DNA of 62,503 bases, counting the filler. It is 6 parts of 6 records of this genome, joined end to end, with 100 filler letters (N's around TTAATTAATTAA, not from the genome) between each part and the next. Parts side by side here need not be neighbours in the genome. Positions count along the whole stretch, not along the records: positions 49,523 to 62,503 come from SRR31156797_9222; 5 more parts are not named here. One strand, written 5' to 3'. Shown here one piece after another: positions 10,210 through 62,503 of the stretch. Position 1 is the stretch's first letter. Every line of letters begins with the position of its first letter. A program made the position numbers and the translations under genes. The notes beneath the pieces were generated by a model. It had not been told where the DNA came from. It did no database searches and saw nothing but the letters and a program-made list of their open reading frames with translations.

Positions 10210-10218
10210 GAAGGCACA

Positions 10219-10943: not shown

Positions 10944-10944
10944 T

Positions 10945-11412: not shown

Positions 11413-11433
11413 GCGATATTCTCGGCACAGCAA

Positions 11434-45405: not shown

Positions 45406-45575
45406 TACAGCAGACTGTATTTTGTTTTTGATGTCCAGTTTTTTTGCGTTTTAAATGTAGATTGGGGAATCAACGCTTTACTCCCGGTAATATAAACTTA
45501 ACATAAAATTAATGTTTTGGAAATATGATCGGAAGGTCCCGGTCGTAACTTTACCGTTTTAAATAAATTTTTGAA

Positions 45576-45797: not shown

Positions 45798-45888
45798 CCG
45801 GTCAAGTTGTTTTTTCAATCGCTGATTATAAGTATGTGCCATCATATCATTTTGAATTATATTTATTGCCTGAAGGATTTAAAATGCG

Positions 45889-46947
45889 ATGACCAACACA
45901 TACAAAAAACTGATCATTTATTATTTTTCGGGCACGGGTAATGCCAGGCACACTGCCCGCTGGATAGCTGATGAAGCTTCAAAAAGTGAAATTGAGGCAC
46001 ATATTGAAAACATCGAAGAGCTACAGCAAATCGAAACGCCGGATCCAAACAGTGACTTTTTGATCGGGTTTTGTGGACCGACCCATGGTTTCAATTTCCC
46101 TCCTGTACTGCTCAATTTTCTTTGGAAATTTCCGAAAGGTGATGGTACTGATGTTTTTATCGTCAATACCCGTGCAGGTATGAAATTGGGGAAGCTTTTT
46201 CTTCCAGGGCTGGGAGGAATGGCACAGTATTTTGCCGCAATTACCCTTTGGTTGAAAGGCTATCGCATTGTTGGTATGCAGCCTATGGATTTACCTTCCA
46301 ACTGGATATCAATTCATCCGGGGCTTCGTGAAAAGGTTGTTCGATCAATCTTTGAAAGATGTGAAAAAATAGCAAGAAATTTTGCGTGTAACATCATCTC
46401 TGGCAGGAAGGTTTACAAAGCACTGCTGTCGTTGCCATTCGATGCGATATTATTTCCAATAGCCGTACTTTATTATATCATTGGAAGATTCGCCATAGCC
46501 AAAACATTTATCGCAACTTCTGATTGCACCAGGTGTGGCTTATGTAAAAAGCAATGTCCGGTGAAAGCCATAAAAATGATCAGGAACCGGCCATACTGGA
46601 CGTTTCGTTGCGAAAGCTGTATGCGTTGCATCAATTCCTGTCCCGAAAGGGCCATTCAAACTACACATACTTTTACGATTATCATTTGGTGGCTCATCAT
46701 GTCTTTTGCCCTGCCATGGGTAGTTTCAAAATTCTACGGTTTTGAATATTTTGGTAAAAATGCTCTTCAGGCCCTCCCGGGATTCATCACTGATTTGTTA
46801 TCGTGGTTCGTTGGCCTGATGCTGATATTCATTGCCTATAAAGCCACCCATTATCTGTTAAAGTTTCGATTATTTGATAACCTGATTGCTTATACGTCGT
46901 TTACAAAATATTTATTCTGGAGGCGGTATAAACCCAACACGAAATAA
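45889..46947 (+). CDS. Flavodoxin-like plus 4Fe-4S ferredoxin protein (EFR1 family) with C-terminal TM helices
   Basis: YFSGTGN, CTRCGLCKKQCP and CESCMRCINSCP. Confidence 0.88.
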   Translation: MTNTYKKLIIYYFSGTGNARHTARWIADEASKSEIEAHIENIEELQQIETPDPNSDFLIGFCGPTHGFNFPPVLLNFLWKFPKGDGTDVFIVNTRAGMKLGKLFLPGLGGMAQYFAAITLWLKGYRIVGMQPMDLPSNWISIHPGLREKVVRSIFERCEKIARNFACNIISGRKVYKALLSLPFDAILFPIAVLYYIIGRFAIAKTFIATSDCTRCGLCKKQCPVKAIKMIRNRPYWTFRCESCMRCINSCPERAIQTTHTFTIIIWWLIMSFALPWVVSKFYGFEYFGKNALQALPGFITDLLSWFVGLMLIFIAYKATHYLLKFRLFDNLIAYTSFTKYLFWRRYKPNTK

Positions 46948-46977
46948 TTTTAAAAATGATTTAGAGTGTACCTGCCC

Positions 46978-48312
46978 CTAATTTACCACTTTTGCGATTT
47001 TTGATTTCACAGGAATATTAACCGATTCCAGTCCCGGAGTTTGTCCGCGCATATCAAATTCGAGTTTTACCTCCGGCCTGAAAAACAGGCAGTGTGTTGA
47101 TCCGCCAAAATGAAACATACCCAGCTCATCACCTTTGTCAACATGTTGACCTTCATAAACCGTAAATTCACATGTTGAAACTTCGGCCATGCCAACAAAC
47201 ATCACAGCCATCAACCCGATGTCGGGATTATCGGCTTCAATAAATACGAGTCCGCGTGCAGCAACTTCGGTGATGTAAGCCTGGGATTCGTTGGGCCCTG
47301 AGGGGTCATAGCCTTCTGAATACGCTTCAGCATAGTATGAGCCGTCCATCAATTTTGTTTTGACAATTTTGCCGCTTACCGGGCTGTGCCAGCGGTGGTA
47401 GCTGAGGGCGCTCAAAAACGCCTGGTATATCGTTCCACCTTCAAACTGATGCACCAGCGGATCGCCGTCCATCATGTGGTAGAGTGAATATGGCTGGGCC
47501 TTGATCCAGAATTCGTTAAAAAGTTCAACATCCCTGGCTATGCGATAAGGCGCAGATTCGCAGGCATTCGCGATTACCGAATTGTCGAGGGGTGATACAA
47601 CCGGCCTTTTGCCCTCACGAAATTGACGGGTAAAAAAGTTATCCCACGAGGTAAATCCATGATATGGTTTTGAGGGATCACAGATAAAATCATCAACAAA
47701 AGTAGGCATGGCTGCCTGGGCATTTTCACCAAACCAGCCACTGTGTGGATCATCGTTGAGTACATATCTCGAATCACTGGATCCCAGAAATACTGCCCAT
47801 TTGTTCAGGATTTTTTTCAACTGGGCATTCACTTTGTTGTTGAGAAAAGCGGATGTTCCGGCCCGGGTACCCATGGGCCAGTCGAGGATGGCGTTTATGG
47901 GAAACCCTACCAGGCCCGTTTTATTAAACTCTGGGGCTTTGGTCATCACATGATTGATCAGTTGTAGCATATGGTTAAAATCTCTAACCTGTAGTTTGCC
48001 TGCCGGCGTATTTTTGAACTTCGCAGATTCCGGGACCTGCTCAAACATTTGGTTAAAATACATATAGAGTTCAGGATCCCGCTCAATCATTTCTTTGAGT
48101 TCCGCAACTTCGGGTAATAATTCAGCATCACTTTGATCGACCTGTGTAATGAGTTCCTGCATCCATGCATCCAATACGGCCTGATCGCTTGGCAACCATT
48201 CACCAACCCTGTATGGTACGGGACCTTCGGTAGTTTGTGCAACGGTAGGATTGCATAAAAATGATAATGGAAGAATTGCTGCAATTGCAAAAATCAGTTT
48301 TACATTTTTCAT
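46978..48312 (-). CDS. Phosphatidylserine decarboxylase-like pyruvoyl enzyme with signal peptide
   Basis: FTSWDNFFTR, YHRWHSP and GMFHFGGSTH (self-cleavage motif), with an N-terminal helical extension containing GFPINAILDWPM. Confidence 0.85.
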   Translation of the reverse strand: MKNVKLIFAIAAILPLSFLCNPTVAQTTEGPVPYRVGEWLPSDQAVLDAWMQELITQVDQSDAELLPEVAELKEMIERDPELYMYFNQMFEQVPESAKFKNTPAGKLQVRDFNHMLQLINHVMTKAPEFNKTGLVGFPINAILDWPMGTRAGTSAFLNNKVNAQLKKILNKWAVFLGSSDSRYVLNDDPHSGWFGENAQAAMPTFVDDFICDPSKPYHGFTSWDNFFTRQFREGKRPVVSPLDNSVIANACESAPYRIARDVELFNEFWIKAQPYSLYHMMDGDPLVHQFEGGTIYQAFLSALSYHRWHSPVSGKIVKTKLMDGSYYAEAYSEGYDPSGPNESQAYITEVAARGLVFIEADNPDIGLMAVMFVGMAEVSTCEFTVYEGQHVDKGDELGMFHFGGSTHCLFFRPEVKLEFDMRGQTPGLESVNIPVKSKIAKVVN

Positions 48313-48627
48313 AGCATAACTTTTTTTGGTTGCCGTAAAGGTAAATCCATTTGCTCTGAAATCCTAAAATTTGATGGAATCAACAAAGGCAAAATGTGCA
48401 TTCAGGTGATGTGTCTGCTTGTTTTAAATACCAAAAACATTGAAGCTATTCCAACTGATTTTCTTAAATCTGATCAAAATTGCTGGAGGACTGAAACATT
48501 TTTTAACCTTTTGTAATCCCGCTGTTGCTGTGGCTTTCGTAGTTTTGTGAAATGCTGAAAATAAACAAAATTAATTTCTAGCATAATAGTTGGACTTATC
48601 CATCTGAAAACTAAAAATTAGAGACAT

Positions 48628-49422
48628 ATGAGACTGATCAAATGGATTTTGGGGGTTTTTCTGCTCATCGGTTTAACCTGGACATCAACAGCAAAGAAAC
48701 CAGTTATGGAAAATGATTATGACAAATTATGGGAAAAAGCCGATTCGTTGAAAGATATTCGCCAACCGGCCGCTGCAATCGAAATTGTGGATGAAATATA
48801 CAGCCTGGCGAAAAAGGATAATAACGTTCCGGTCATTATCCGTGCACAGCTTTACCGTTTGAAGCTTTCGTCAGAATTTGAGCAGGACTATTTGCTAAAG
48901 GCGGTTACCAAAATACGGGATGACATTAAAAAATCAGCAACCCCCGAACGGCAATTGCTGCATTCGGTTTTGGGTGAGCTGTATGTTAAATATTACCAGT
49001 TTAACCGGTATAAGATCTTAAACCGGACTGCTACAGTCGGGTTGGAAACTGAAGACATTGAGGTGTGGGACGTGAACAGGATTATGCAGGAAGCCGCAAA
49101 GCATTTTCAGCTTTCGCTGGAGGAGCCCGGTGATTTGAAAAAATTGAACATCGAAACCTTCAGGACGATCCTGGAAAACACGGAAGGGGAAGGAGCATTG
49201 CGGCCCACACTGTTCGATTTCCTGGCATGGAGAGCAGTTGATTTTTACCTGAATGAGGAGACTAACCATAGTGTTCGTGCCACCAGTTTTATCCCGGCGG
49301 ATGGCAAATATTTCGAGCCTGCCGATAAGTTCATCAAAATTGATCTGGCGGCAGACTTCCAAAATTCTCATCCGCGCAGCGCAATGGAAATCCTGCAGTC
49401 ATTGCTTCAATTTCATTTGAAT
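48628..49422 (+). CDS. Alpha-2-macroglobulin-like secreted protein, N-terminus (3' truncated)
   Basis: Signal peptide, YDKLWEKADSL and RPTLFDFLAWRA resemble Bacteroidota A2M N-termini. No thioester region is visible. Confidence 0.6.
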
Positions 49423-49522
49423 NNNNNNNNNNNNNNNNNNNNNNNNNNNNNNNNNNNNNNNNNNNNTTAATTAATTAANNNNNNNNNNNNNNNNNNNNNN
49501 NNNNNNNNNNNNNNNNNNNNNN
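49423..49522. other. Artificial contig spacer
   Basis: N-run with TTAATTAATTAA linker. Confidence 0.99.
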
Positions 49523-49564
49523 TTGACCCTGCGGCTCAAATATTTCTCAACTCAAACGTTGTAC
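49523..49564 (+). repeat. 3' half of an attC-like integron recombination site
   Basis: ...TATTTCTCAACTCAAAC-GTTGTAC parallels ...GTATCTCACTTCAACC-GTTATAT at 60493-60515. The GTT core at 49558 is followed by an RBS and an ORF. Confidence 0.65.
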
Positions 49565-49578
49565 CCTAAAGGAAAAAA

Positions 49579-50395
49579 TTGCAAAAATGTAATGTAGAAT
49601 GTTATGATAAATGTCAAAAAAATGTTTATACTGATGACCAATGTATTTTACACTGCAAAAAAAATAATTATCAAAAAGATAGACATTCTGGTTTGCTATC
49701 TAGTTTTTATGATGAATTTTTAAATTATACAATAGAACAAATATTTGAACATACGGAGTTATTAAATAATGAATTAAGTAAAGAAGATCTCAGAACTTAT
49801 TTTATAAGTAATCAATTTAATAATGTAGAATATAATAAAGTTTTAAATAAAACAATTTTTATACCTAGTTGTATCCATTTTCCCACAAGAGATAGTCGAG
49901 ATTATTTTGATTATTTAAAAATACTAAATTTATTTGGACAAATCCACTTTAACTATTGTGAATTTTATCTTTCAAGTTTAAATCTAGATAATGTAGAATG
50001 TTTTTTTCAAGATTGTAAATTTCATGATAGGTGGACACTCTATAATTATGGAGTATTAGAAAATCAAGATGATGTAATATATCAAATGTGTGAGTTTAAC
50101 GGTACAGTATCAAACTATACACCTGAAAAATCAACTGAACTAGCTATTTATAATTTTTCACAGTTTGATTACACTTGTAAGTTTAAAGATTCAATAGAAC
50201 TTGAAAGAGTAAAGTTTTCAAATATGATGTTTAATACCAATCAACATAATTATTTTGACAACAACTTTATTAAACTATTAAAATTTGAACATTGCACCTT
50301 TGAAAAAAAGTTCAAATTAAATAACTATACTATTGATGAATTTATTTGTGAAGATAGCATATTTAGAAATAAATTTGAGTTTAAAGAAAATCAGA
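49579..50395 (+). pseudogene. 5' part of an interrupted pentapeptide-repeat-like membrane protein gene
   Basis: Cys-rich N-terminus (CILHC) and FxxCxF repeats. Joins in frame with 58790-59646 once the insertion and one TCAGA copy are removed. Confidence 0.88.
50391..50395 (+). repeat. Left 5-bp target site duplication (TCAGA)
   Basis: TCAGA lies immediately before TGTGAGG and is repeated at 58785-58789. Confidence 0.92.
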
Positions 50396-50750
50396 TGTGA
50401 GGGGTTGTAAAGAAAGTTACTAGTGGATAATTTGTGCTTTTTTTGTTTGAAAGGCTTTATTTATGGGGTTGGTGCTTTGTTGGTTTTTAAAAGTTGGTGA
50501 TTTTAAAAGAGTGTTACTTTTACAAATTCCCTTTATTATGCAGTATTTGTATCTTTTTAGAAAAAAGCTTTAAAATTTTATGATTTAAAATAGCTTTAAA
50601 GCCCATTATAAAGGCATTTAAAGAAAGAAAAAAGATTAGAAAAAAAGTGAAAAAATACTTGAAATAAATTAGTTATATGTTTTAAGGTTTCGTTCTTTAA
50701 AACTTAAAAACCAATTAAATTACATACACTATTACATAGTAAAACATATA

Positions 50751-51512
50751 TTAATTCTTTAAAAAATCATCTTGTTCTTTTTTTATTTTCCTTAAAGTAA
50801 TTAGGAGATCATCAATAAATTTACTTGGTACATAATCTAACAAATACAAAATTTCTTTATATTCTTCTTTTATTTCATTGTTTATATTTTTTTCATCAGG
50901 AATATAAATTTCTTGTGGAGTATTTCTTTTTTTTAAAACGTCAAGGTATTTTTCTTCACTGATATCATTATATACCTGTATATTTTCACATTCTCTTAGC
51001 TCATCAGTAAAAAAAACGATTATGTGTTGTGAACTCTCATAATTATTGAAAATTACTTTGCGGTGAGTAAAAATAAATCCTAATTGAGAAGGTTTAATTT
51101 TAAATTCATGACATAAAGAAATATAGAATTTTACATCATCTTCTAATAATCCTCTTTTCTCCAATAAAGCTTCTAAATCTTCGTCATACCCGTCTAATTC
51201 AATCATTGTACCATCAACTGTTGCTTTTTGCATAATATCTTTGCTTGTTAAATTATATATGTATTTACATCTTTCTATTGCAACTTGAGCAACTGTCATG
51301 TGTTTAAAATAATTATCATTACAATTTATATTTTCTATATTAAAATATATACTTAAAAATTTAATATACTCTTCAGATGGTGCACGTTCACCTCTTTCAT
51401 AGCTTGCAATTGTCCTTTCTTTAAAACCTGATATAGACTCTAACCCTTTTCTTGAAATTTTATGTTTTTTTCTTATTTCCATTAAAGTTTCATTTATTTT
51501 TTTCATTTTCAT
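50751..51512 (-). CDS. XRE-family HTH repressor (c-position) with long C-terminal region
   Basis: LMEIRKKHKISRKGLESISGFKERTIASYERGERAPS. Divergent from the transposase operon. Confidence 0.8.
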   Translation of the reverse strand: MKMKKINETLMEIRKKHKISRKGLESISGFKERTIASYERGERAPSEEYIKFLSIYFNIENINCNDNYFKHMTVAQVAIERCKYIYNLTSKDIMQKATVDGTMIELDGYDEDLEALLEKRGLLEDDVKFYISLCHEFKIKPSQLGFIFTHRKVIFNNYESSQHIIVFFTDELRECENIQVYNDISEEKYLDVLKKRNTPQEIYIPDEKNINNEIKEEYKEILYLLDYVPSKFIDDLLITLRKIKKEQDDFLKN

Positions 51513-51522
51513 TCCTAAACAC

Positions 51523-51579
51523 TTGACAAACAGACACAGTGTATGATATTATTGCACACAGTGAACATACACAGTGTAT
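51523..51579 (+). promoter_or_regulatory. Early promoter with three operator repeats
   Basis: TTGACA (51523) and TG-n-TATTAT (51544-51552), with ACACAGTG at 51534, 51556 and 51569. Confidence 0.75.
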
Positions 51580-51624
51580 ATTTTTTATGAAATATACAAT
51601 AAGTAAACAAAAAAAAGGATTAAA

Positions 51625-51963
51625 ATGATAGTCGTTAATAATAGTTCTATCGGTACAAGATTAGAAACAATTCGAAAGTTGAGAAACATATCTCAATTAA
51701 AAATGGCGGAAATAGCAGGTGTATCAAGAACAACATATATAAAAATTGAAAAAGATGAAGCTTCTTTATCCATTGAGGGTGTATTAAATATATCTAATGA
51801 ACTTAATATTTCTTTAGAATATTTATTAACTGGTATTGATTTAATTGATAAGAGAAATGACAAACTTACTAAAATTAAACATGATACACAAATTGATAGT
51901 AAAATTGATAATGGCTGTTTAATAACCACAATTTCAGTTCCACTTTTTAAATACTTAGGTTAA
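51625..51963 (+). CDS. XRE-family HTH protein (Cro/Ner position)
   Basis: IGTRLETIRKLRNISQLKMAEIAGVSRTTYIKIEK...ISLEYLLTG. RBS AAGGA. Confidence 0.85.
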   Translation: MIVVNNSSIGTRLETIRKLRNISQLKMAEIAGVSRTTYIKIEKDEASLSIEGVLNISNELNISLEYLLTGIDLIDKRNDKLTKIKHDTQIDSKIDNGCLITTISVPLFKYLG

Positions 51964-51989
51964 AAAGTGGATTTTATTAGGGTATTGTA

Positions 51990-54056
51990 ATGAAAATATT
52001 TGATACCAAAAACTTAGTTGATTTGATAAAAACAAATCAACAATACATTAGTTTAAAAATAAAACACGCAAAAGACAATAACCTAGATCACATCCAAATA
52101 AAAGGATACAAATTCTACTTTAGAAATAAAAAAGTAGGAAAAGGTTATGAGTTTTGTGAAGTGCCATTTGATGAGCTGTTAGAGTTCTCCTTATCTGACA
52201 GCTTATCAAATGATACTTTTGTGTCTCAAATAAGAGTGGAGCACGTTAAAAAAGATATTGATACTGCAAGTGAAGTGAAGATCAGTAGATTAAGTGTGCA
52301 AAAAAGAAGAGAATTAGATCTTAAAGAGAAGTGTGTAAAAGCTTATCTTGAAAATAAATCGGATATCACCCAAAGGCTGGAAATGCCAATATTTATTGAT
52401 AGATTTTGTTTTGAAAATAAAGAGCTTATCGATGCAGTTGGGTTACAGATCAATAAAACTAGCATTGGAAGATGGACCAAAAAATATCTAAAGAGTGGAA
52501 AAGATGGGCTTATTACTGCAAGGGGATCTAAAAAAGGGAAAAATAGAACCGTTCCAACCTGGGCCATGGAGTTCGTGGAAGAGATGTTCTTTTATAAAAG
52601 GGGAAATATCACCGCTAAGAACCTTTTTAGTCTTGTAAATGCAGAGGCTTATACAAAAGGTGAGATCTCTAAAGAGGATTTTAAAAAGACTGATAGAGAG
52701 CTTGGTGGTATCATTAGTTATAACAGGGTAAAAGTGATCCTAAGAGAGCTTAAAGATACGAAAAAATACAGATATCTTATTAACCCAGATGCTTTTAAAA
52801 ATAGTTACTTACCTGCTTTTGGAGATATGAGAGAAAAAGCACAGCGTGCCAACCAATATTGGGAGATAGATAGTACCAAACTTGATGCTTTTGGAAAAGA
52901 CGGTAGTGGGGAGAGTACTTGGAATCTTATCTCAATTAGTGATATAGCTACAGGTATGAAAGTATTAACTATTGCTAAGACTTCAAACTCTAACGCAGTG
53001 GCTGAACTGATCTATAAAGCTATCAATAAACTTGGACTTCCTGAGAATATCGTAACAGATAACGGAAAAGACTATTTATCAAATCATATAGTAACCTTAC
53101 TTGAAAAGTTAGGAATCCATCAAATAAGAACCGCACCGTTTGCAGGGGAGCAAAAACCATTTGTAGAGCGACACTTTGGAACGCTTCAAAATAGCTTTAC
53201 AGAGCTTTTAAATGGGTATAAAGGTCATAATGTAGCACAATTTAAGGCGATACAGTCTCAGACTTCAACTGCTGATCGAATAAGCGGTAATAAACCTGAA
53301 AAAAATACAGAATTTATCTATGAGATATCAACTATGATTGATGAGTGGATAGATAACGTATATTCTAAACAATACAATAAAGGGCTACAAGCAACACCTT
53401 ATGAAGCATATCTAAGAGATGAAGAGTTTATCTCACGAATAGATATCCAAAAACTTGCTTTTATATTCGGTAAACAAAAAGAGGTAACTATCGGTAAAAA
53501 AGGTATTAGACTCAATAATAAAGTATATAACTTTAGTGATGGATCACTTGCTAAATATATCGGTGATAAATGTATCTTAGCACTTGATTTTATAGATATC
53601 TCTAAAGGATACCTATTTGATATCAACGGTGACTTTATCTCAATGGTAACAGATGAGAAGATCTCAAAAGAAGCAGCACTTGAAGCTAAAGCAATCTATA
53701 AACATGAAGTAAAAGCCTTAGAAAAAGAGCATAAGAAACTGGCTAAAAAATATAAAGATACTAACCTTGTCAATTCTATTATAGAGGTGCATAAAGAAGT
53801 ATATAAAGATAGTAGACCTATTGAGTCAATCGGTGGAGCTGCTATCACTCAAAATAGTGGAAATATCAAACACTTAAATAATATATCACAGAAAATAGAA
53901 GAGCAGCTTGATAGACACCAAACAATAAATTCTAAACCTGATCTTGAGATCCGTGAAAGATCATTGGATCTTATCATCAAAGAGAAAGAGGAACAAAAAG
54001 CTAAAAAGCCAGTGATAAGTTATGAAGAGCTTTTTGAACGTGAAGCGATGGCATAA
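51990..54056 (+). CDS. MuA-like DDE transposase
   Basis: DDE triad in WEIDST, IVTDNGKDY and QKPFVERHF, plus a Mu-type C-terminal barrel (VTIGKKGIRLNNKVY). 688 aa. Confidence 0.92.
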   Translation: MKIFDTKNLVDLIKTNQQYISLKIKHAKDNNLDHIQIKGYKFYFRNKKVGKGYEFCEVPFDELLEFSLSDSLSNDTFVSQIRVEHVKKDIDTASEVKISRLSVQKRRELDLKEKCVKAYLENKSDITQRLEMPIFIDRFCFENKELIDAVGLQINKTSIGRWTKKYLKSGKDGLITARGSKKGKNRTVPTWAMEFVEEMFFYKRGNITAKNLFSLVNAEAYTKGEISKEDFKKTDRELGGIISYNRVKVILRELKDTKKYRYLINPDAFKNSYLPAFGDMREKAQRANQYWEIDSTKLDAFGKDGSGESTWNLISISDIATGMKVLTIAKTSNSNAVAELIYKAINKLGLPENIVTDNGKDYLSNHIVTLLEKLGIHQIRTAPFAGEQKPFVERHFGTLQNSFTELLNGYKGHNVAQFKAIQSQTSTADRISGNKPEKNTEFIYEISTMIDEWIDNVYSKQYNKGLQATPYEAYLRDEEFISRIDIQKLAFIFGKQKEVTIGKKGIRLNNKVYNFSDGSLAKYIGDKCILALDFIDISKGYLFDINGDFISMVTDEKISKEAALEAKAIYKHEVKALEKEHKKLAKKYKDTNLVNSIIEVHKEVYKDSRPIESIGGAAITQNSGNIKHLNNISQKIEEQLDRHQTINSKPDLEIRERSLDLIIKEKEEQKAKKPVISYEELFEREAMA

Positions 54057-54214
54057 ATTTAAAAAAGTGAATAATGTTCACCTTTTTAAGTTTATGATTG
54101 ACAACTGTTTTACAACCGTTAAAACACTTATAGAGCCTTTAAATAAAGGAAATATAAAAAACGGTTGTGTCGATTGTGTTGGTTGTAGACTGAAATAAAA
54201 TGAAAGGATAAACG

Positions 54215-55093
54215 GTGATTGGAACTACTAGAGAGTTTTTGAAAAAACATAATCAAACTCAAAAATGGTTAGCAATGAATATAGATGTAAGTGATGCACA
54301 AATTTCTACTTTCTTGGCAGGAACGTATAAAGGCAATGTGCAAAACTTAGAATCAAAGCTTAAAAACTTTATTGAGAATTTTATCCCAAACGTTGTTAAA
54401 AGTCAAGATATGGAGTTTTTTATCAATAACGGTAATACAAAAGCTATCCACTATATTATGAAAAAAGCAGTGGAGCAGGTAAGATTATCGGCAATAACTG
54501 GCAATGCTGGGTATGGTAAAACAACTGCTGCTAAAAGGTTTATAAAAAATAGACCTGAAGCTATCTATATAAAGGCTAATAACCTTGATACCACAAAAGA
54601 CTTTTTAGAGATGATCTGTAAAGAGCTTAATATCAAAATAGAGAAACGTGGTAAAGAGATGTATAACAGCGTAGTGGTAACACTGGGGAAAATCAATAAG
54701 TTTATCGTGATCGATGAAGCGGAGTGGTTAAAAGATAAAACCCTTGATGTGGTTCGTAACATTTGGGAAGAGTCAAAGACTCCAATAATATTGATCGGTA
54801 CATTAAACCTTAAGCAAAATCTTAAAGGTACACGTGGAGAGCTTGATTATGTGGATAATAGGATAAGGGGAAGATATACATTAGAGAGTTTGAGTGATGA
54901 GGATCTATTAAACGTATGTACCCATTATGGTGTTTCAAAAGATGGAATGGAGAGGGTTAAAACTTTAGCATGTGGAAACTTTAGAGAGACAATCTTTTTA
55001 CTTGAAGAGGCAAAAGAGCTTGCACAAAGTTTTAATATAGATCTCATAGATAGTGAAGTGATTAATGAAGCTTCAAAAATGGCTTTTGGGTGA
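54215..55093 (+). CDS. MuB-like AAA+ transposition ATPase
   Basis: N-terminal HTH, Walker A GNAGYGKT, Walker B IVIDEAE, IILIG and GNFR. Directly after the transposase. Confidence 0.9.
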   Translation: MIGTTREFLKKHNQTQKWLAMNIDVSDAQISTFLAGTYKGNVQNLESKLKNFIENFIPNVVKSQDMEFFINNGNTKAIHYIMKKAVEQVRLSAITGNAGYGKTTAAKRFIKNRPEAIYIKANNLDTTKDFLEMICKELNIKIEKRGKEMYNSVVVTLGKINKFIVIDEAEWLKDKTLDVVRNIWEESKTPIILIGTLNLKQNLKGTRGELDYVDNRIRGRYTLESLSDEDLLNVCTHYGVSKDGMERVKTLACGNFRETIFLLEEAKELAQSFNIDLIDSEVINEASKMAFG

Positions 55094-55227
55094 GATGGTG
55101 AATAGTTTAAAAATACGGGCTTTTTTTACTGTATGTAACTTATGGTATGGAAAAAAAGAGTTTTTAAGTTCTCGTAGATTTTAAACATATTTTAAACGGT
55201 ATTACAGATTATGAAGGAGTTAATAAA

Positions 55228-55485
55228 ATGGAAGAGTTAAAAACTGCTGGAGCAATTTTTGATCAATTGGAAAATATAAGAAGAAAACAAATGTATCTTA
55301 ATGTTGTATCAATGACACATATGGAAATGGTATTAGATGGTAAATTATGTTTAGATAGAGATGAGATGACAGGAAGACACTCTTTATTATTAGAGATGGA
55401 AAAAGAGTTTGATGATGTGATGAAATCATTTGATCATATCCTATTAGGAGGGAAAGTAAAATGCAAGAATATAGAGAACAATTAA
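55228..55485 (+). CDS. Hypothetical protein (85 aa)
   Basis: RBS AAGGAG. Co-oriented in the early operon. Confidence 0.7.
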   Translation: MEELKTAGAIFDQLENIRRKQMYLNVVSMTHMEMVLDGKLCLDRDEMTGRHSLLLEMEKEFDDVMKSFDHILLGGKVKCKNIENN

Positions 55486-55706
55486 CTAGCCTAGTTGATG
55501 ATGCAAGTGATGCTATATCAATGAGTATTGCAACTATAGAGATGTATAACCTTATGCTTAAAAATAAAGATGAGATCTTTGGGTTAAGTCCAGAGGGTGC
55601 GGAACTTATTGCAATAGAGACAAATGAAAAGTTGGAGTTCTTAAGAGCTGCACTTATAAGGTTTGCTAGAGGTGATCAAGATGACACAGATAAAATATCC
55701 AACTAA
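55461..55706 (+). CDS. Hypothetical protein (81 aa)
   Basis: RBS GGAGG. Overlaps both neighbours. Confidence 0.7.
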   Translation: MQEYREQLTSLVDDASDAISMSIATIEMYNLMLKNKDEIFGLSPEGAELIAIETNEKLEFLRAALIRFARGDQDDTDKISN

Positions 55707-56160
55707 AGAGATCACAAAACCACAGATCAGGAAGATCCATACTTTAGTAAGTAGTATTGGATTGAATGATGATTACTACAGAGCTTTATTATCAAGATTT
55801 GGGGTTGAATCATCAAAAGAGCTTAATAGAGAAAAAGCAGCACGTCTTATTGATATATTGGTTGATATTGAAATGGAGCAATTATCAAGAAGTCAAACTC
55901 AAAAGCCTACAGGGGTACAACTCCAAGGTAGGCTTGTATATTTCAATAGAGCAGGAAAAGCAACAGATAGTCAAATAGATTATATGACAGGGCTTTGGGT
56001 AAAACTATCTAAGGTTAAAACCTATGAAAGCTTTATGTGGTTTGCTAGAAAAATAACAGGTGTACTTTATCTCCATATTGAGAGTTTAAAAGTTCAAGAG
56101 GCAAGTAAGGTGATATCCGTATTAGAGAAGTGGAATAAGCAAAAAGAGATCAAAAAATAA
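55681..56160 (+). CDS. gemA: GemA/Gp16-like (DUF1018) Mu-phage protein
   Basis: QIRKIHTLVSSIGLNDDYYRALL...G..SSKEL and C-terminal ASKVISVLEKW. Position before mor matches transposable phages. Confidence 0.8.
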   Translation: MTQIKYPTKEITKPQIRKIHTLVSSIGLNDDYYRALLSRFGVESSKELNREKAARLIDILVDIEMEQLSRSQTQKPTGVQLQGRLVYFNRAGKATDSQIDYMTGLWVKLSKVKTYESFMWFARKITGVLYLHIESLKVQEASKVISVLEKWNKQKEIKK

Positions 56161-56187
56161 GTTTGGCGACTTGCTGATCTCTTTTTG
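56140..56187 (+). terminator. 13-bp inverted repeat between gemA and mor
   Basis: CAAAAAGAGATCA-N22-TGATCTCTTTTTG perfect stem spanning the gemA stop codon. Confidence 0.55.
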
Positions 56188-56251
56188 TAAAGCATTATAA
56201 TTGAAAACTCAACTTTGTGAAAATATATCAAAATACAAAGGGTTTGTCAAT

Positions 56252-56539
56252 ATGCTGGTTGTTACTAATTATGAATTGTTTGAAGAGCTTTATAAGTTTA
56301 TCCAAGAGGGGAACACTTTAGAAGAGACCATTAAAGAGTACGGCGGAGGTACTTATTATATCCCATCTTATAAAACAGTATGTCGAAATGATGAGATCAT
56401 ACAAGACTATCTTACAATGCTCCAAAACGGTGATAAACAAATCACTAGAAAGCTCTCAAAAAAATATGAACTTGGTACACGGCAAATACAAAATATTATC
56501 AAAGAATACAAAGAGGAGGTAAGCGAAAAAAACACCTAA
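56252..56539 (+). CDS. mor: Mor/C family transcription activator
   Basis: YGGGTYYIP, RNDEIIQDY and HTH RKLSKKYELGTRQIQNII. Start could alternatively be 56201. Confidence 0.85.
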   Translation: MLVVTNYELFEELYKFIQEGNTLEETIKEYGGGTYYIPSYKTVCRNDEIIQDYLTMLQNGDKQITRKLSKKYELGTRQIQNIIKEYKEEVSEKNT

Positions 56540-56602
56540 CACCTAATCACATTTTAAAACCAAAAAACGAATAAAACAATAAAAAAAGAGAGGAAATAAA
56601 AA

Positions 56603-57616
56603 ATGACAACATTAGAGTTGATTGAACTATGGACAGCAAAAGACACGACAAAAAGTCTTAATCAAATTAAAGATACGGATACCTTTATATATTCGTTATT
56701 CTTTAAAAGTAATATGGAGGGTAAAAAATCCAATAAAGTGGAGATACCTATTAAAAGAGGTAGTGGTATTATTCTCACATCTGTTAGCCCTACGGATGAG
56801 CATTTAGTAAAAGATAGAGCAGATGAATATTTACTTGATCTTACATTACCTAGATTCCCTTTGATGGATACAATTACAGCAGCTGCACTTAATGATCTTA
56901 AATCGTTTGATACTCCAGATCAAAAAGCGGAACTAGCAACAATGATTGGAAATATCCAAAAAGATCATTTGAGTAGCTTTTTAACTACTTTAGAATATAT
57001 GGCAGCAGGTTCACTGTTTGGTAAGATCATGGACGGTGAGGGTAAGATCTTATTTGAATTTAAAGGGGAAAATGACACTATAGAGGTAAAGTCAAATGAA
57101 GATCCTATTAACTTCTTAAGAACCATAGATAAAAAACTGGTTGCAGAGCTTGGAAAGAACTCAACTTATACAGGGCTTGCAAGTGATGAGTTTATGGATA
57201 ACCTTTGGGGATTGTGTAAGACTTTAAGTCTTGATGAAAAAGAGCAGGCAAGATGGGTTGAGAAAGATGATAGAAGATGCTTAGAGGTATATAGTACAAT
57301 TATCTATCCATATTCAGCTACATATAAAAACTTAGAGGGTGAAGAGAAAAGGTTTATTCCTGAAAATGAAGCGGTATTTGTACCAAAAGTAAAAGATGCT
57401 TTTACTACATACTACGGTAGAGCTGATCACGTTGAAGCAGTTTCAAAAGCACCTATTCAATTCTTTGGAGCACTTGATCCATTGCCAAAAGGTGTTGGGT
57501 ATTCTGTATTAAGTGAGATGAAATCTATCCCAGTATGTCACAGACCATCAGCTGTTATTAAAACTAAATGGATTGAAGTTATAGAAGAGCCAGTGGAAGA
57601 GGAACCTGTAGAATGA
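56603..57616 (+). CDS. Major capsid protein (lambda gpE-like family)
   Basis: 337 aa next to a prohead protease, with RBS GAGG. LTSVSP, TLPRF, TLEYMAAGSLFGKI, FIPENEAVF and ESKSIP-like EMKSIPVCHRPSAV fit gpE-type capsids (recognition, not a search). Confidence 0.75.
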   Translation: MTTLELIELWTAKDTTKSLNQIKDTDTFIYSLFFKSNMEGKKSNKVEIPIKRGSGIILTSVSPTDEHLVKDRADEYLLDLTLPRFPLMDTITAAALNDLKSFDTPDQKAELATMIGNIQKDHLSSFLTTLEYMAAGSLFGKIMDGEGKILFEFKGENDTIEVKSNEDPINFLRTIDKKLVAELGKNSTYTGLASDEFMDNLWGLCKTLSLDEKEQARWVEKDDRRCLEVYSTIIYPYSATYKNLEGEEKRFIPENEAVFVPKVKDAFTTYYGRADHVEAVSKAPIQFFGALDPLPKGVGYSVLSEMKSIPVCHRPSAVIKTKWIEVIEEPVEEEPVE

Positions 57617-58434
57617 GTAGATTATTAGAATTACATAAACTAAGCTATAGCGGTGATTTATCGCTATATGCTTTATCTACTGAACAAAATAACCTATCTA
57701 AGGTTTTAATAGCAGTTCAAGGAGTTTGGCACGGTCATATCAATGGTTCTTTTGAAGTTACCAAAGAGATCATGCAGCAGATGGTAACAAACTTTGATAA
57801 GCAAGGGATAGATACAGTTTGTGATTATGAACATCAAACACTTACAAAAGAAAAAGCTCCAGCAAGTGGTTGGATCAAATCTTTAGTGATTGAAGATGAT
57901 AAACTCTATGCGAATGTAGAGTGGACAGATCAAGCAAAAGAAGAGATCAAGACAAAACAATATAAGTATGTATCACCTGTTTATGATCCTAAAACTATTG
58001 ATCCTAAAAGCGGTGAAGATCTTGGCTGGTCGGTTCATTCTTTATCTTTAACCAATAGACCGTTTTTAGAAGAGCTAGGGGAAGTAATAGCTAATAACAA
58101 TAAAAGCTATATATCTTTGAAAGCTGAGAATGATAAGCTATCTAAGCAGCTTAAAGAAGCTAATGAAACCATTGAATCTTATAAAGAAGATCATGCAGAG
58201 CTAATCGTTAATAATGCTATTAAAGATGGAAAGCTTCATTCAAATCAAAAAGAGTATGCACTCAAACAGGCTAAAGAAGATTTAGAGGGATTTAAAAGCT
58301 TTATATCTAACAATCCAGTGAACCCTTTTGCATTTGATAGAGAAATGTTTGGAGAGTATAACAAAGGCTTTAAACGTCATAGTGGCAGTGATATTGATGA
58401 TATGGTTGCAATCGCTTCTAAGGTGAATGGATGA
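57613..58434 (+). CDS. Mu-like prohead protease/scaffold (gpI)
   Basis: DYEHQT, APASGWI, LYANVEWT, YKYVSP and LSLTNRPFL, then a coiled coil and VNNAIKDGKL. Confidence 0.9.
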   Translation: MSRLLELHKLSYSGDLSLYALSTEQNNLSKVLIAVQGVWHGHINGSFEVTKEIMQQMVTNFDKQGIDTVCDYEHQTLTKEKAPASGWIKSLVIEDDKLYANVEWTDQAKEEIKTKQYKYVSPVYDPKTIDPKSGEDLGWSVHSLSLTNRPFLEELGEVIANNNKSYISLKAENDKLSKQLKEANETIESYKEDHAELIVNNAIKDGKLHSNQKEYALKQAKEDLEGFKSFISNNPVNPFAFDREMFGEYNKGFKRHSGSDIDDMVAIASKVNG

Positions 58435-58694
58435 ATATAATAAGAGAGTACTCAGATGAGCAAGGGGATTTCGTTTCAATGCCTAACTTAATAGGTAAAG
58501 TGCAAGGACTCAGGACGTTGCCCCTCTCGTCTAACCGTTACACTTCTCTCTTATCTTTGTATCAAAAGATCAAAGTAAGGTTAGAATGGTGTTTTCGAAG
58601 GGAAGAGCTTACATTTCCTTATTATCACCATTCATCTTTTGAGTTATTAAATCATACATTAACTACTCTTAAAACTCATTTTAAAATCCAATAA
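58431..58694 (+). CDS. Hypothetical ORF near the right end
   Basis: ATGA overlap with the protease stop codon. No recognisable motif. Confidence 0.35.
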   Translation: MNIIREYSDEQGDFVSMPNLIGKVQGLRTLPLSSNRYTSLLSLYQKIKVRLEWCFRREELTFPYYHHSSFELLNHTLTTLKTHFKIQ

Positions 58695-58784
58695 ACTTAT
58701 ATTAAAATAAAGTGTTAATACTAATCTAAAGTTTAAGAAACTTTTTGTAAAACCGTTAAGTTACACTTTTTGCGGTCGGGTACA

Positions 58785-58789
58785 TCAGA
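58785..58789 (+). repeat. Right 5-bp target site duplication (TCAGA)
   Basis: Follows ...GGGTACA and is identical to 50391-50395. Confidence 0.92.
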
Positions 58790-59646
58790 TTATTAATTTT
58801 AAAATTTATAATTCAAACTTTGACAATATTTCAGATTTATATGGTTGTCAATTTACAAAGTTTAAAATAGAAAAAAGTATTTTCAATGATTTTGCAGGTT
58901 TTGAAAACTGTATATTTGGTACAAAAGATAAACTTAAAGAAGAAATAGCGACTTTTAAACATGCCACTTTTAAAGACTCCTTAAACATTAGAGATACAAA
59001 ATTTTTGAGTGGTTTAGATATCAAAAATATAAATTTACAGGGTGAATCAAATTTTTTAAATGCCGATATTGAAACAACTAATACTAATAGAGAAACATTT
59101 AGATCTTTAAAACACTCATTTGATAGTATAAGTAATATTATAGAAGCGAATAAATACTATCAAAAAGAGATGCAAAAAAGGGAAGAAGAATTAAAAGAAA
59201 ATGAATACATTGAATGGATTGTATTTAAACTTCATGGAATTGCATCAAATCATTCTCAAGATTGGCTATTATCTTTATTTTGGATAATTGTAATCGGCTT
59301 TTTATCTGCAACTTATGATTGTTGTATTATTGAACAAAAGTGTACTTACTCTATGTTTTCAGAACCTATATTATACATTTCAAGTTGTTTAGTAATTACA
59401 ATTTTAATCATGAAGTATTGTTTCAATGAAATTTCAAAAATTGTTATTTTAGTTTTTACTTTCTCTTTGTATTTATTTTTGACACTAGACTTAAAGTTTG
59501 AATATCTTGCTAAGACAATTAATCCTTTTTCTGTAATGCTAAGTGGAGATAATTTAGATATAATACAATTTATATTTAAAGTTATAATAGCATATTTAAT
59601 TTATCAATTCATTATATCTATTAGACAAAATACAAGAAGAAAATAA
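58790..59646 (+). pseudogene. 3' part of the interrupted gene (repeats plus C-terminal TM helices)
   Basis: Open frame IINFKIYNSNF...FENCIFG...TFKHATF runs into the 59005-59646 ORF. Confidence 0.88.
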
Positions 59647-59656
59647 GGCAAGAGAG

Positions 59657-60343
59657 ATGCAAAAATTAAATGAACTAACACTAAAACAAAGAGAAGAACT
59701 CTTTAGACAATTAAGAATCTCAATCACTCATCATTCAAATGCAATGGAAGGGACTACATTATCATTTGGAGAAACAAAAGAATTATTAGAACTAGGACAT
59801 ACAGCAGGACATAAACCACTTGGTGAACAACTTGTAATATTAGGTTTTGCAAAAGCTTACGATGTAATCATTCGTGAAGCTACAAACCCACATAATATTA
59901 TAGATAGTAGTTTTATAAAAGATATTCATGCAATCATGTTTGAAGATGCTTTAAAGGTAGCACCTGAGTTTGTATCTAAACCAGTTGGAGCATATAGATT
60001 AGATGAAAGATATATCAAAGGTGTAGATATAAAACTATCTTTACCACATATGATTTCAAACGATATTGAAAATTTACTATACAGAATAAAAAGTAACGAT
60101 ATGAGTTTATTAGATATATCTGATTTTCATATTCAGTTTGAAAGAATACATCCCTTTGCAGATGGCAATGGAAGAGTAGGAAGATTGATAATGGCATATC
60201 AAGCTATACAAAACAATATAGTGCCACCACTTATTGAAAATGAACATAGAGATGACTACTTAAAAGCTATAAATGATAAAGATGATTTATGTGTGTTTCT
60301 TGATGAAAGTATTAAAAAAAGTTTAGAGTTGATAGAGTTATAA
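59657..60343 (+). CDS. Fic-domain AMP transferase with N-terminal inhibitory motif
   Basis: Active motif HPFADGNGRVGR, with SNAMEG matching (S/T)xxxE(G/N). Confidence 0.92.
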   Translation: MQKLNELTLKQREELFRQLRISITHHSNAMEGTTLSFGETKELLELGHTAGHKPLGEQLVILGFAKAYDVIIREATNPHNIIDSSFIKDIHAIMFEDALKVAPEFVSKPVGAYRLDERYIKGVDIKLSLPHMISNDIENLLYRIKSNDMSLLDISDFHIQFERIHPFADGNGRVGRLIMAYQAIQNNIVPPLIENEHRDDYLKAINDKDDLCVFLDESIKKSLELIEL

Positions 60344-60383
60344 ACAAGTAAAAATAAACTTTAATGGTAATTTGAGCATTAAG

Positions 60384-60515
60384 GTACAACAAATCAAAGG
60401 AGATAACAAGATTACACCGCCTAAATATCGAGCTTTTAGTATATAAAATTAGATATATTAAAGATTAAACATCTCTGTAATTATACCACCTTGTATCTCA
60501 CTTCAACCGTTATAT
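60384..60515 (+). repeat. attC-like integron recombination site (132 bp)
   Basis: GTACAAC-N5-AAAGGAGATAACAAG ... CTTGTATCTCACTT-N5-GTTATAT: AAC/GTT cores with an imperfect stem carrying unpaired bases. Confidence 0.72.
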
Positions 60516-60536
60516 GACAAAAGGAACCAATACAAA

Positions 60537-61325
60537 ATGCTAGACTTCTCAGCCCTTTTTACTTCTGTACTAGCCAACCTAGTTCAAGTATGGTATTTGG
60601 TTCCACTCTTATTAATTATATTATTTTTCAAATTACCATTTGGGAAAGGCTTACTTGGTGAAATGCTTGTTAATTTTATCATAACTATACGACTAGACAG
60701 GCAAAAATACCATTTAATAAAAAATGTCACACTTCCAACAGAAGATGGTACTACTCAAATTGATCATATCATCGTATCTGAATTTGGTATCTTTATTATT
60801 GAAACAAAAAATATGCAAGGGTCTATATATGGTAGAGATAAACAAAAAGATTGGATTCAAAAGATCTACAATACCACTAATAAATTTCAAAACCCATTAC
60901 ATCAAAACTACAAACATATTAAAACAATAGAATCCCTTGGAATAGATCAAAATATAATCTTTTCACTTGTTGTATTTGTGGGAGATAGTAGATTTAAAAC
61001 AACTATGCCTGAAAATGTAACCCTTGCAGGTGACTTTATAAAATATATCAAATCAAAAAAAGAAAAAACAATATCCTCACATGAAATGAAAAAAATAACC
61101 TCTTTGATAGAGTCAAAAAGTGTATCACCAACTTTAAAAACGCACCATCAGCATATAAAACATGTTCAAGAAATTGTACAAGAAAAAAAGAATAAAAATC
61201 TATGCCCAAAATGTGGTAATAATTTAGTTATCCGTATTGTAAAACAAGGAGTAAATAAAGGCAATAAATTTTATGGTTGCACTAATTATCCTAAATGTAG
61301 ATACACAAAATCTATCCTCTCATAA
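60537..61325 (+). CDS. NERD nuclease-domain protein with C-terminal topoisomerase-type zinc ribbon
   Basis: N-terminal TM, GLLGE, TTQIDHI, IETKN, QNPLHQN and CPKCG...FYGCTNYPKC. Confidence 0.9.
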   Translation: MLDFSALFTSVLANLVQVWYLVPLLLIILFFKLPFGKGLLGEMLVNFIITIRLDRQKYHLIKNVTLPTEDGTTQIDHIIVSEFGIFIIETKNMQGSIYGRDKQKDWIQKIYNTTNKFQNPLHQNYKHIKTIESLGIDQNIIFSLVVFVGDSRFKTTMPENVTLAGDFIKYIKSKKEKTISSHEMKKITSLIESKSVSPTLKTHHQHIKHVQEIVQEKKNKNLCPKCGNNLVIRIVKQGVNKGNKFYGCTNYPKCRYTKSILS

Positions 61326-61332
61326 AATAACA

Positions 61333-62503
61333 TCACAACTCCCCAGTAATCCCACTCACATCAAAAAGTGTAGGCTGTTTTACTTTTGGAGGAGCTAAAT
61401 AAGCACTCTTAATAGTATCTTTATACATAGGGATCATCCTTTGATACTTCCCTTTGCAGGTGATAAAATACTGCGCTTTTTTAATAGATATCTTTAACTG
61501 TTTAAGATCACTAAAATCAAGCTTTTTATATCTTCTAGCTTTTAGGATCTTTATCACACTTCTCATACCAATCCCTGGGATTCGAAGAAGTTCCTCTTTT
61601 GAAGCTTTGTTTATCTCCATAGGAAAATATTGTAGATTATTTAAAGCCCAAAACATCTTTGGATCAAGTTCTTCATCTAGATTTGGATTTTCTTCATCAA
61701 CTATCTCATCATAGGTAAAATCATAAAACCGTAAAAGCCAATCCGCTTGATAGAGTCTATGTTCTCTTAAAAGAGGTGGTTTATTTGCTATCATTGGAAG
61801 ATTTTTATCATCATTGACTGGGATATACGCACTATAGTAGACTCTTTTTAAAAGTGCTTTATCGTACATGACTGAACTTAGTTTTAAGATATCTTTATCA
61901 CTCTCAGGAGTTGCTCCAACGATAAGCTGAGTTGACATCCCTATGGGTTTTGATGAGCGCTCCAATGAGATATCTCTTGCTAATCGTAAAGGTTGTAATA
62001 CTTTTTCTTTTGTTTTATTGGGTGCTAGAAGTTTTAGGCTAGTATCACTTGGAAGCTCTATATTTGAGCTTACCCTACTGGCTAAGTTTACTACTTGTTC
62101 TATCAGTTTTTCATCTGATCCTGGGATAAGTTTTACATGGATATATCCATTAAATTTATATTCATGACGTAGGATTTTAAGAGTTCTTAAAATTAAGTGC
62201 ATCGTATGATCTTCACTATCTATAATGCCACTACTTAGAAAAAGTCCTTCGATGTAATTTCTTTTATAAAAATTTATTGTGATATCAGCAAGTTCTCTTG
62301 GGGCAAACGCTGCTCTTTTTATATCATTTGAAGAGCGATTTATACAATAAGCACAATCGTAGATACAATAATTGGTAAGTAATACTTTAAGTAATGAAAC
62401 ACATCTTCCATCTGCTGTAAAGGTATGACAGATCCCACTATTATGAGTCGCTCCTAGTTCTCCTGTTTTATAGTTATTATCACTTCCACTAGAACTACAG
62501 CTT
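61333..62503 (-). CDS. Putative DNA modification/repair radical SAM protein with HhH motif (5' truncated)
   Basis: Frame extends to the window end: SCSSSG...GICHTFTADGRCVSLLK..TNYCIYDCAYC, REHRLYQADWLLRFY and LLRIPGIG. Confidence 0.9.
   Translation of the reverse strand, partial: SCSSSGSDNNYKTGELGATHNSGICHTFTADGRCVSLLKVLLTNYCIYDCAYCINRSSNDIKRAAFAPRELADITINFYKRNYIEGLFLSSGIIDSEDHTMHLILRTLKILRHEYKFNGYIHVKLIPGSDEKLIEQVVNLASRVSSNIELPSDTSLKLLAPNKTKEKVLQPLRLARDISLERSSKPIGMSTQLIVGATPESDKDILKLSSVMYDKALLKRVYYSAYIPVNDDKNLPMIANKPPLLREHRLYQADWLLRFYDFTYDEIVDEENPNLDEELDPKMFWALNNLQYFPMEINKASKEELLRIPGIGMRSVIKILKARRYKKLDFSDLKQLKISIKKAQYFITCKGKYQRMIPMYKDTIKSAYLAPPKVKQPTLFDVSGITGEL

Follow-up and report, generated by a model that had tools for sequence, protein, structure and literature searches.

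An 8.4-kb Mu-type transposable element with its own capsid gene as a candidate helper-dependent phage satellite

A 62,503-nucleotide stretch of DNA (hereafter the window) was analyzed for a Mu-type transposable element of 8,389 bp at positions 50396–58784, which carries its own major capsid gene. Sequence comparisons indicate that the element belongs to a natural, diversified, and selected mini-Mu-like transposon lineage whose only constant virion gene is that for the major capsid. The element is probably a member of an old lineage of Mu-derived transposons, 7.6–8.4 kb long, that live as phage satellites dependent on a helper; of this reading, helper dependence, packaging, and particle formation are what we infer.

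The element starts with TGT (50396–50398) and terminates with ACA (58782–58784). TCAGA flanks both termini at 50391–50395 and 58785–58789, which confirmed the ends and the 5-bp target duplication proposed in a first-pass annotation of this DNA. When the element and one TCAGA copy were removed, the open reading frame (ORF) at 49579..50400 joined the ORF at 59005..59646 in frame, reconstituting a host ORF of 557 codons with its start at 49579 and its stop at 59644–59646. This restoration of the host frame indicates a precise insertion, and the lack of other damage in the target gene indicates a recent one. The features of the element and of the interrupted host gene are listed below, with protein lengths in amino acids (aa) and HTH for helix-turn-helix.

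49579..50395, plus strand: 5′ part of the host gene, without a Pfam family and ending in the 5 bases of the left TCAGA copy
50396..50750, plus strand: left end, 355 bp of non-coding DNA, starting TGTGAGGGG
50751..51512, minus strand: repressor candidate of 253 aa; HTH_3 at the N terminus, C-terminal domain without known family
51523..51552, plus strand: early promoter-like site, TTGACA-18-TATTAT, 11/12, with TG; a consensus match only
51625..51963, plus strand: Ner/Cro-like HTH regulator, 112 aa, HTH_19
51990..54056, plus strand: MuA-type DDE transposase, 688 aa, rve and Mu-transpos_C, phrog_310 (E 7e-59)
54215..55093, plus strand: MuB-type AAA+ transposition ATPase, 292 aa, AAA_22, phrog_296 (E 2e-56)
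55228..55485 and 55461..55706, plus strand: two small overlapping ORFs, 85 and 81 aa, no family
55663..56160, plus strand: GemA homologue, 165 aa, Pfam E 4e-14
56201..56539, plus strand: Mor/C-family late transcription activator, 112 aa, phrog_6119 (E 1.5e-13)
56603..57616, plus strand: major capsid protein, Phage_cap_E (E 1e-41), covering profile positions 1–328 of 329
57613..58434, plus strand: Mu gpI-type prohead protease, 273 aa, Mu-like_Pro (E 1e-40), with a scaffold-like C-terminal part
58435..58784, plus strand: right end, 350 bp of non-coding DNA with two ACTTTTTG direct repeats, terminating GCGGTCGGGTACA
58785..59646, plus strand: 3′ part of the host gene, beginning with the right TCAGA copy at 58785–58789

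Ten ORFs give the element a coding fraction of 0.85, and sizeable non-coding DNA is found only at its two ends. Families were named for eight of the ten ORFs using Pfam and PHROGs, and no integrase family was found among the ten with either resource. The uninterrupted ORFs described earlier for two HTH regulators, MuA, MuB, two small proteins, GemA, Mor, capsid, and protease were all present. MuA and MuB are intact. D294, D357, and E393 of the MuA DDE triad were invariant in 11 sequences from small elements and full phages, and MuB, encoded directly downstream of MuA, carries Walker A GNAGYGKT at 96 and Walker B FIVIDE at 163. The repressor divergent from the Ner-like gene, plus the A and B genes, constitutes a Mu-style switch. 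The promoter-like site at 51523–51552, a strong one by consensus, lies within this divergent region; the Mu early promoter is located in the corresponding repressor/Ner region.

The true start of the capsid gene may lie about 10 codons downstream, because the relatives are about 325 aa long. A sequence search of the PDB with the capsid profile returned two capsid proteins, 9zbi_A (E 3e-7) and 9cul_G (E 1.2e-5); the AlphaFold2 capsid model, built on a 22-row alignment, had a mean pLDDT of 57.7, which is insufficient for a fold search. Between the protease and 17 relatives, 33 positions are invariant, including H42, D71, H74, S121, and S143 (18 sequences from small elements and full phages), and the protease equals those of full-size phages in length, 267–299 aa; the PDB sequence search with it gave only a weak, unrelated match. 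The Pfam score of Mor was 23.9 bits, slightly below the 24.9 cut-off. The second small ORF (55461–55706) had a 35% match in L003, one of the related loci described below. PADLOC returned nothing for the element proteins beyond HTH-level matches to defence families, and Rfam gave no match inside the element.

The remainder of a virion module was sought with the 28 proteins of L058, a full-size Mu-like relative on a 33.9-kb viral contig that carries Portal_Mu, Mu_F, the large terminase, DUF1804, baseplate and tail genes, an amidase, and a holin. At E ≤ 1e-3 over the whole window, only four of the 28 matched (protease, capsid, Mor, and GemA), all inside the genes named above. The window therefore holds no portal, terminase, tail, or lysis fragments. 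The absence of portal, terminase, MuF, neck, tail, and lysis genes leaves the element outside complete Mu-like viruses, and no ORF remains that could hold them. The first-pass view that there was neither room for other virion genes nor fragments of them was thus upheld. A diversity-generating retroelement (RVT_1, bAvd) is also present in L058, as is a PAAR-motif protein.

Relatives of the element were collected at the protein and DNA levels. Searching the protein collection with the capsid yielded 24 relatives, at 43–88% identity. The element proteins were also mapped on 68 DNA loci, comprising 1 from species genomes, 53 from metagenomes, and 14 from viral contigs (with an alignment as query; 0 with a single protein), some of which are the same record in two collections. 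A compact layout, defined as Mor and capsid adjacent on one strand or capsid followed directly by protease, occurred in 7 of the 68 loci (L001–L006 and L019), with MuA-MuB-GemA-Mor upstream wherever the contig extends far enough. The full-phage order of protease, small gene, and capsid was found in 53 loci, and the other 8 were capsid-only fragments, among them L021, which is 98.9% identical to L003.

Three further complete elements were delimited.

L005, 3873–11437: 7,565 bp, TCTCA duplication, TGT...ACA
L004, 142–7749: 7,608 bp, CCATA duplication, TGT...ACA
L113 (= G544:C84), 3790–11750: 7,961 bp, TTTGA duplication, same terminal sequences

L004 and L005 are 95.5% identical between sharp boundaries and unrelated outside them. 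Right-end junctions with unrelated flanks were found in L001, L002, L003, and L019; all four terminate in CGGTCGGGTACA, and before it stand one or two copies of ATCATTTTAAAC(C/G)GTCGG. The same architecture was therefore recovered at other sites, in three more complete elements and four right-end junctions. In total, this gives at least 8 separate insertion events in at least 6 sequence-distinct elements.

These elements fall into two subtypes that differ in the genes after Mor.

Window subtype (window, L001, L002, L003, L019): capsid, then protease/scaffold
Sister subtype (L004, L005, L006, L113): 135-aa protein, 104-aa protein, then capsid; no protease

The capsid is the sole late gene common to both. 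The 135-aa protein of the sister subtype matches DUF1804 (Pfam E 7e-13) and Terminase_5, shares its PHROG with the gene lying directly upstream of the L058 large terminase, and is 28–42% identical to that terminase-upstream gene in many full-size phages. The 104-aa protein is 22–45% identical to the small gene between protease and capsid of full-size phages and has a weak head decoration match (phrog_49, E 5e-4). The two are therefore predicted to be small-terminase-like and decoration-like, respectively.

The repressor region differs between the otherwise close L004 (469–1216) and L005 (4200–4904), whose repressors share 45% protein identity versus 97–100% elsewhere. By analogy, this exchange is best read as an immunity or helper-sensor swap of the kind seen in temperate elements. 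Between the capsid and the right end, L005 (10977–11198, minus strand) and L004 (7289–7510, minus strand) carry a 73-aa hydrophobic protein of no family, which could be a membrane moron, e.g., for exclusion or holin-like. In L001, bases 1–122 are unrelated to the element and about 18 first capsid codons are cut off. No MuA match was found in G001, the assembly that contains L001, and L001 may be a truncated copy or reflect an assembly break.

The termini have the features of Mu-type ends, namely TG...CA termini, tandem subterminal repeats at the right ends, and the 5-bp duplication. At the left end of the window element, the block AAAGAAAGTTAC at positions 14–25 has a related counterpart in AAAAAGTGTAAC, which is equally far from the right end and is read inward. 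Both ends of the sister subtype carry one identical 11-base block, TGAAATGTCAA, at positions 15–25. Such paired subterminal blocks are features expected of MuA-binding end sites. The left end presumably holds MuA-binding sites and possibly pac. The left end of the window element can be aligned with those of the sister subtype (70% mean column identity), although MuA of the two subtypes is only about 45% identical.

In L113, a brute-force scan turned up 11 further TGT..ACA pairs whose 5-mers match, and the chance of a 5-bp match is about 1 in 360 by arithmetic from base composition. A 5-bp match is thus weak alone; it gains weight because the matches sit exactly at the homology boundaries in four of four elements. 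A search with the 25-mers of the window ends returned only the window, plus L001 for the right end. A match of L025 to the left-end 25-mer, with 6 mismatches, was judged to be chance.

The segment 58562–58784 is 81% identical to L001. Within it, the non-coding block 58562–58700 just inside the right end (L001 1873–1990) is 81% conserved between the two and could represent a site that acts in cis, or a small RNA. An 87-codon ORF at 58431–58694 overlaps this block; it is not kept as an ORF in L001 and probably does not represent a gene.

The 53 non-compact loci are taken as ordinary full-size Mu-like myophages because L058, one of them, carries the full virion set. Their order is protease-X-capsid...TerS-TerL-portal-MuF, convergent with Mor, and in all 34 non-compact loci with a Mor match, Mor lies on the opposite strand, 6–9 kb from the capsid. 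These Mu-like myophages of Campylobacterota share MuA/MuB, GemA, Mor, Phage_cap_E, the Mu-I protease, TGT..ACA, the 5-bp duplication, and a related right end with the element. They differ in having 30–40 kb with portal, MuF, both terminase subunits, tail, baseplate, and lysis genes, all of which the element lacks, and in carrying protease-X-capsid on the strand opposite Mor. As had been expected, Mu-like phages are several times larger (about 30–40 kb for the Campylobacterota relatives, also put at roughly 31–35 kb, versus 8.4 kb), and the head genes of the compact elements are rearranged, since the full-size relatives have another order on another strand.

The right ends were compared for two full phages, G404 and G405, whose capsid clade is nearest to the compact clade. 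Their right ends, ...TATCATTTTAAA...GCGCGGTTGTACA, resemble the small-element ...ATCATTTTAAACGGTCGGGTACA; they read ...TATCATTTTAAATTCAAATTACTAACATTT(C/T)AAGCGCGGTTGTACA and are visibly related to the compact right ends. This comparison covers right ends only, as G404 ends inside the phage and left-end motif searches in G405 found nothing. A further locus, L117 (G415:C46, 8033–12251), carries a same-family capsid, 38% identical, in a different head module without MuA, Mor, or a Mu-I protease match, and it belongs to another type of phage.

Against this background, one can ask whether the element is an internally deleted, decaying Mu-like prophage, or one of several of independent origin. All of its genes have homologues in full-size Mu-like phages. 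In addition, L001, without about 18 capsid codons and in an assembly without a MuA match, indicates that single copies can decay or be misassembled. However, gene order and strand differ from those of the full phages, so neither compact layout can be obtained by one deletion. The compact layout also recurs among elements whose MuA proteins are 43–46% identical and whose synonymous sites are saturated.

No full-size parent was found either. Full-size relatives have capsids 29–47% identical to that of the window and MuA about 30% identical, and none of the 802 sampled genomes, 53 metagenome loci, 14 viral loci, and 50,697 phage records yielded a parent whose capsid exceeds 47% identity. Among the latter, the nearest were the Helicobacter pullorum prophage records BK070139, BK070135, and BK070133 (capsid 38%, MuA about 31%) and Campylobacter phage CAM-P21 (capsid 35%, MuA 29%). 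These searches thus gave no near-identical full-length parent, which the first-pass annotation had named as a refuting finding.

Phylogenies of MuA and capsid against full Mu-like phages, as had been proposed, separated the small elements in both trees. In the capsid tree, all 7 compact rows and 18 proteins of unknown context formed one 25-row clade (SH-aLRT 99), and none of the 51 full-phage rows fell inside it. This tree had 83 distinct rows, with identical sequences entered once. It was built without 15 loci that have a stop in the extracted segment (L034, L035, L037, L038, L040–L044, L055, L077, L082, L083, L086, and L092), all of which show the full-phage protease-upstream layout. In the MuA tree, a long branch (support 100/99) separated 6 compact from 5 full-phage rows. 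The branching order of the compact group agrees between the two trees, which indicates that MuA and capsid have travelled together.

Selection was estimated as pairwise ratios of nonsynonymous to synonymous substitution (dN/dS) by the Nei-Gojobori method, in which the more distant pairs are synonymous-saturated. Capsid dN/dS was 0.007 between L004 and L005 (dS 0.18), 0.014–0.016 against L006 (dS 0.46–0.48), and 0.10 between the window and L001 (dS 1.06, near saturation). The protease value for the window and L001 was 0.17. Between L004 and L005, the values were 0.049 for MuA, 0.014 for MuB, and 0.034 for GemA. For the TerS-like gene and the 104-aa gene, dN/dS was 0.014–0.13 and 0.10–0.17. Of the element's genes, the capsid shows the lowest dN/dS as long as dS is unsaturated.

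These values indicate that all genes are under purifying selection (dN/dS 0.007–0.37), and the capsid and protease values show no relaxed selection on the head genes. With this, all three findings that the first-pass annotation had named as refuting (a near-identical full-length parent, a lack of independent copies, and relaxed selection) had been looked for, and none held. With every ORF open, dN/dS no higher than 0.37, and capsid and MuA clades that exclude all full-size phages, we regard an origin as a deleted, decaying prophage as very improbable. The small-element lineage is monophyletic, occupies different sites in different genomes, and is probably old.

The element was then compared with known kinds of mobile elements. 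It fits a MuA/MuB transposon, with its DDE triad, adjoining MuB, termini, and 5-bp duplications, and its gene content indicates neither a complete Mu-like phage nor any of the satellite families considered here. As in satellites generally, essential virion genes are absent, while capsid-assembly and packaging genes are conserved under purifying selection. To our knowledge, the satellite families P4, PICI, cf-PICI, PLE, and PICMI all integrate with recombinases. The element has no recombinase and inserts with a 5-bp duplication at unrelated sites, which sets it apart from PICI, P4-like, PLE, and PICMI elements.

There is a likeness in gene content to the cf-PICIs, which use an integrase and their own replication module. 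The cf-PICIs are reported to encode all small-capsid and packaging proteins and to steal only tails (bioRxiv 10.1101/2022.09.08.507074). The window element is likewise a small chromosomal element with its own capsid and protease, whose missing virion parts would come from a helper. In contrast, it has no portal, head-tail adaptor or connector, small terminase, or integrase, and its mobility and replication are of the MuA/MuB type.

SaPIs carry terS, and SaPI-type PICIs and PICMIs redirect packaging via a small terminase or by mimicking pac. Like them, the sister subtype (L004, L005, L113) has a small-terminase-like gene, which adjoins the capsid. Unlike them, the elements have their own capsid gene and no tyrosine integrase or primase-replicase, and the window subtype has no terS. 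P4 uses the capsid protein of its helper with its own external scaffold Sid, integrase, and primase, and its delta protein transactivates helper late genes. The likeness to P4 is that of a small temperate element that would depend on a helper for virion parts, and by analogy Mor could play a delta-like part, whereas the window element supplies its own capsid protein and transposes. Laboratory mini-Mu elements are man-made deletion derivatives with Mu ends and A and B, without head genes, packaged by helper Mu; the window element shares the Mu ends and the A and B genes but represents a natural, diversified lineage with a selected capsid gene.

The element thus combines two known kinds, transposable phages and capsid-encoding satellites. 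In the parts of a 2024 review of helper-dependent elements that were accessible, transposases appear only for insertion sequence elements as well as miniature inverted-repeat transposable elements (PMC11389934). The satellite of the Pseudomonas AH14a/AH14b helper-satellite pair has an integrase (PMC4936722), and the literature consulted also included a 2026 preprint on gut Mu-like phages (10.64898/2026.05.11.724261). In the full-text literature searched, with subscription journals mostly outside its scope, no transposing satellite or small capsid-bearing Mu-like element was described.

The satellite reading suggests the following course. The repressor would hold the element silent. Upon derepression, perhaps triggered by a helper, the Ner-like/A/B operon would be switched on, and MuA and MuB would amplify the element by replicative transposition. 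Mor would then activate the capsid and protease/scaffold genes, and procapsids of satellite size, made for 8 kb of DNA, would be built on a portal supplied by a full-size Mu-like myophage that co-infects the host or resides in it. The same helper would provide the large terminase, MuF, neck, tail, and lysis functions. Headful packaging would proceed from the left end and include some flanking host DNA, as in Mu.

The subtypes would differ in how they contribute to this process. The window subtype would form heads with its own protease/scaffold. The sister subtype would supply its own decoration-like protein and the DUF1804 TerS-like factor, which would redirect the helper terminase to the satellite. 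By arithmetic from P2/P4 head sizes, 7.6–8.4 kb would fit a very small shell of T=3 or T=4.

The distribution of the element was examined in two genome samples. In a Campylobacterota sample of 401 genomes, 26 had the family capsid, comprising 1 compact element (G001), 24 full phages, and 1 cut by a contig end. In a same-order sample of 401 genomes, 7 were found at E ≤ 1e-100, comprising 2 compact elements (G001 and G544), 4 full phages, and 1 other phage type. A different study sampled a microbial mat, and in its metagenome fragments of the element at low depth had 0–15 differences in 194–482 bp, some of them 0–2 in 194–370 bp, and pieces of the flanks differed by 6–15%. This gives a weak hint that the element may be shared or transferred between diverged hosts.

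Several observations weigh against helper-dependent packaging. The compact element is rare, at 1 of 401 genomes for the phylum and 2 of 401 for the order. A Mu-type portal query gave no match in G544 or G001, whose assemblies are possibly incomplete, while the controls G589 and G541 were positive, and each of the two genomes has one Phage_cap_E gene. The L058 protein search found no other Mu-like phage gene in the 62.5-kb window. In the viral contig collection, two scans with the capsid and one with small-element MuA returned only full-size phages or nothing, and thus no compact element. In the probable source run, for which contigs only were available, a single contig runs across the whole stretch at flat depth. 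The satellite capsid is at most 47% identical to any sampled full-size capsid, yet it would have to fit a foreign portal, and the window subtype has no terminase subunit and so no packaging-specificity gene.

Two other observations were set aside. A PF06074 family search gave no match in G544 or G001, nor in 14 control genomes, and was hence uninformative. A joint of 50025 to 59086 (X2) was rejected as an empty site, as it differs from the expected 8,394-bp excision and lies within a repetitive gene.

The failure to find a helper or a packaged form in the genomes and viral contigs examined is also what would be expected of a Mu-derived transposon that is not transferred in particles. Such an element would keep the capsid for an intracellular role, e.g., poisoning or diverting head assembly of invading Mu-like phages as a defence at the element's own cost, and its spread would be limited to transposition and the usual routes of horizontal transfer. 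The purifying selection seen on the capsid fits any function, and the element lies in what looks like a low-GC accessory island beside Fic/DOC and NERD genes. However, the small-terminase-like gene of the sister subtype points to DNA packaging and not to interference alone, no known defence family was matched beyond HTH domains, and the near-identical fragments with diverged flanks in the second metagenome are a weak hint of transfer. We therefore regard an intracellular role as unlikely.

A third explanation is that the element is a capsid-forming transposon independent of any helper, whose tailless particles enclose DNA or transposition intermediates as a bacterial parallel to Ty-type Gag. 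The capsid as the only late gene in both subtypes and the lack of a helper in G544 or G001 are in agreement with it. However, the element has no portal, packaging ATPase, or lysis/exit function, and we know of no HK97-type capsid that loads DNA without portal and terminase. This explanation seems very improbable as well, and dependence on a helper phage remains our preferred reading.

Within that reading, we see about an even chance that the lineage is a new satellite family that parasitizes Mu-like myophages and is the first in which DDE (MuA/MuB) replicative transposition replaces integrase and replicon. Its head-hijack module would be minimal, with its own capsid as the constant part.

The surroundings of the element in the window were also inspected. 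The region 49500–62503 has 22–34% GC versus 35–49% over 44000–49500. This low-GC stretch carries a Fic/DOC gene (59657–60343) and a NERD nuclease with a topoisomerase-type zinc ribbon (60537–61325), and has the look of an island of accessory or defence genes. Rfam matches in the window were limited to a molybdenum-cofactor riboswitch (95 bits) and one tRNA, at 8537–8670 and 19047–19121. Five pairs of 44-base N runs, 12 letters apart, are masked stretches (6169–6268, 14670–14769, 33282–33381, 38759–38858, and 49423–49522).

The case bears on annotation as well: prophage finders are not suited to elements this small, nor transposon finders to elements this phage-like. The two natural subtypes, with different head and packaging genes, offer a comparison for the minimal redirection of a Mu-type head.

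A transposing satellite, if true, would represent a new mobility mode in phage parasitism, and a single capsid gene could form the core of a hijack module. Satellite spread would then be linked to random insertion, as in the disrupted host gene of the window, and to the carriage of host DNA. Because Mu-type headful packaging starts in flanking host DNA, each satellite particle would also contain a segment of the host chromosome, taken from a new site, and the lineage would be a built-in transduction vehicle.

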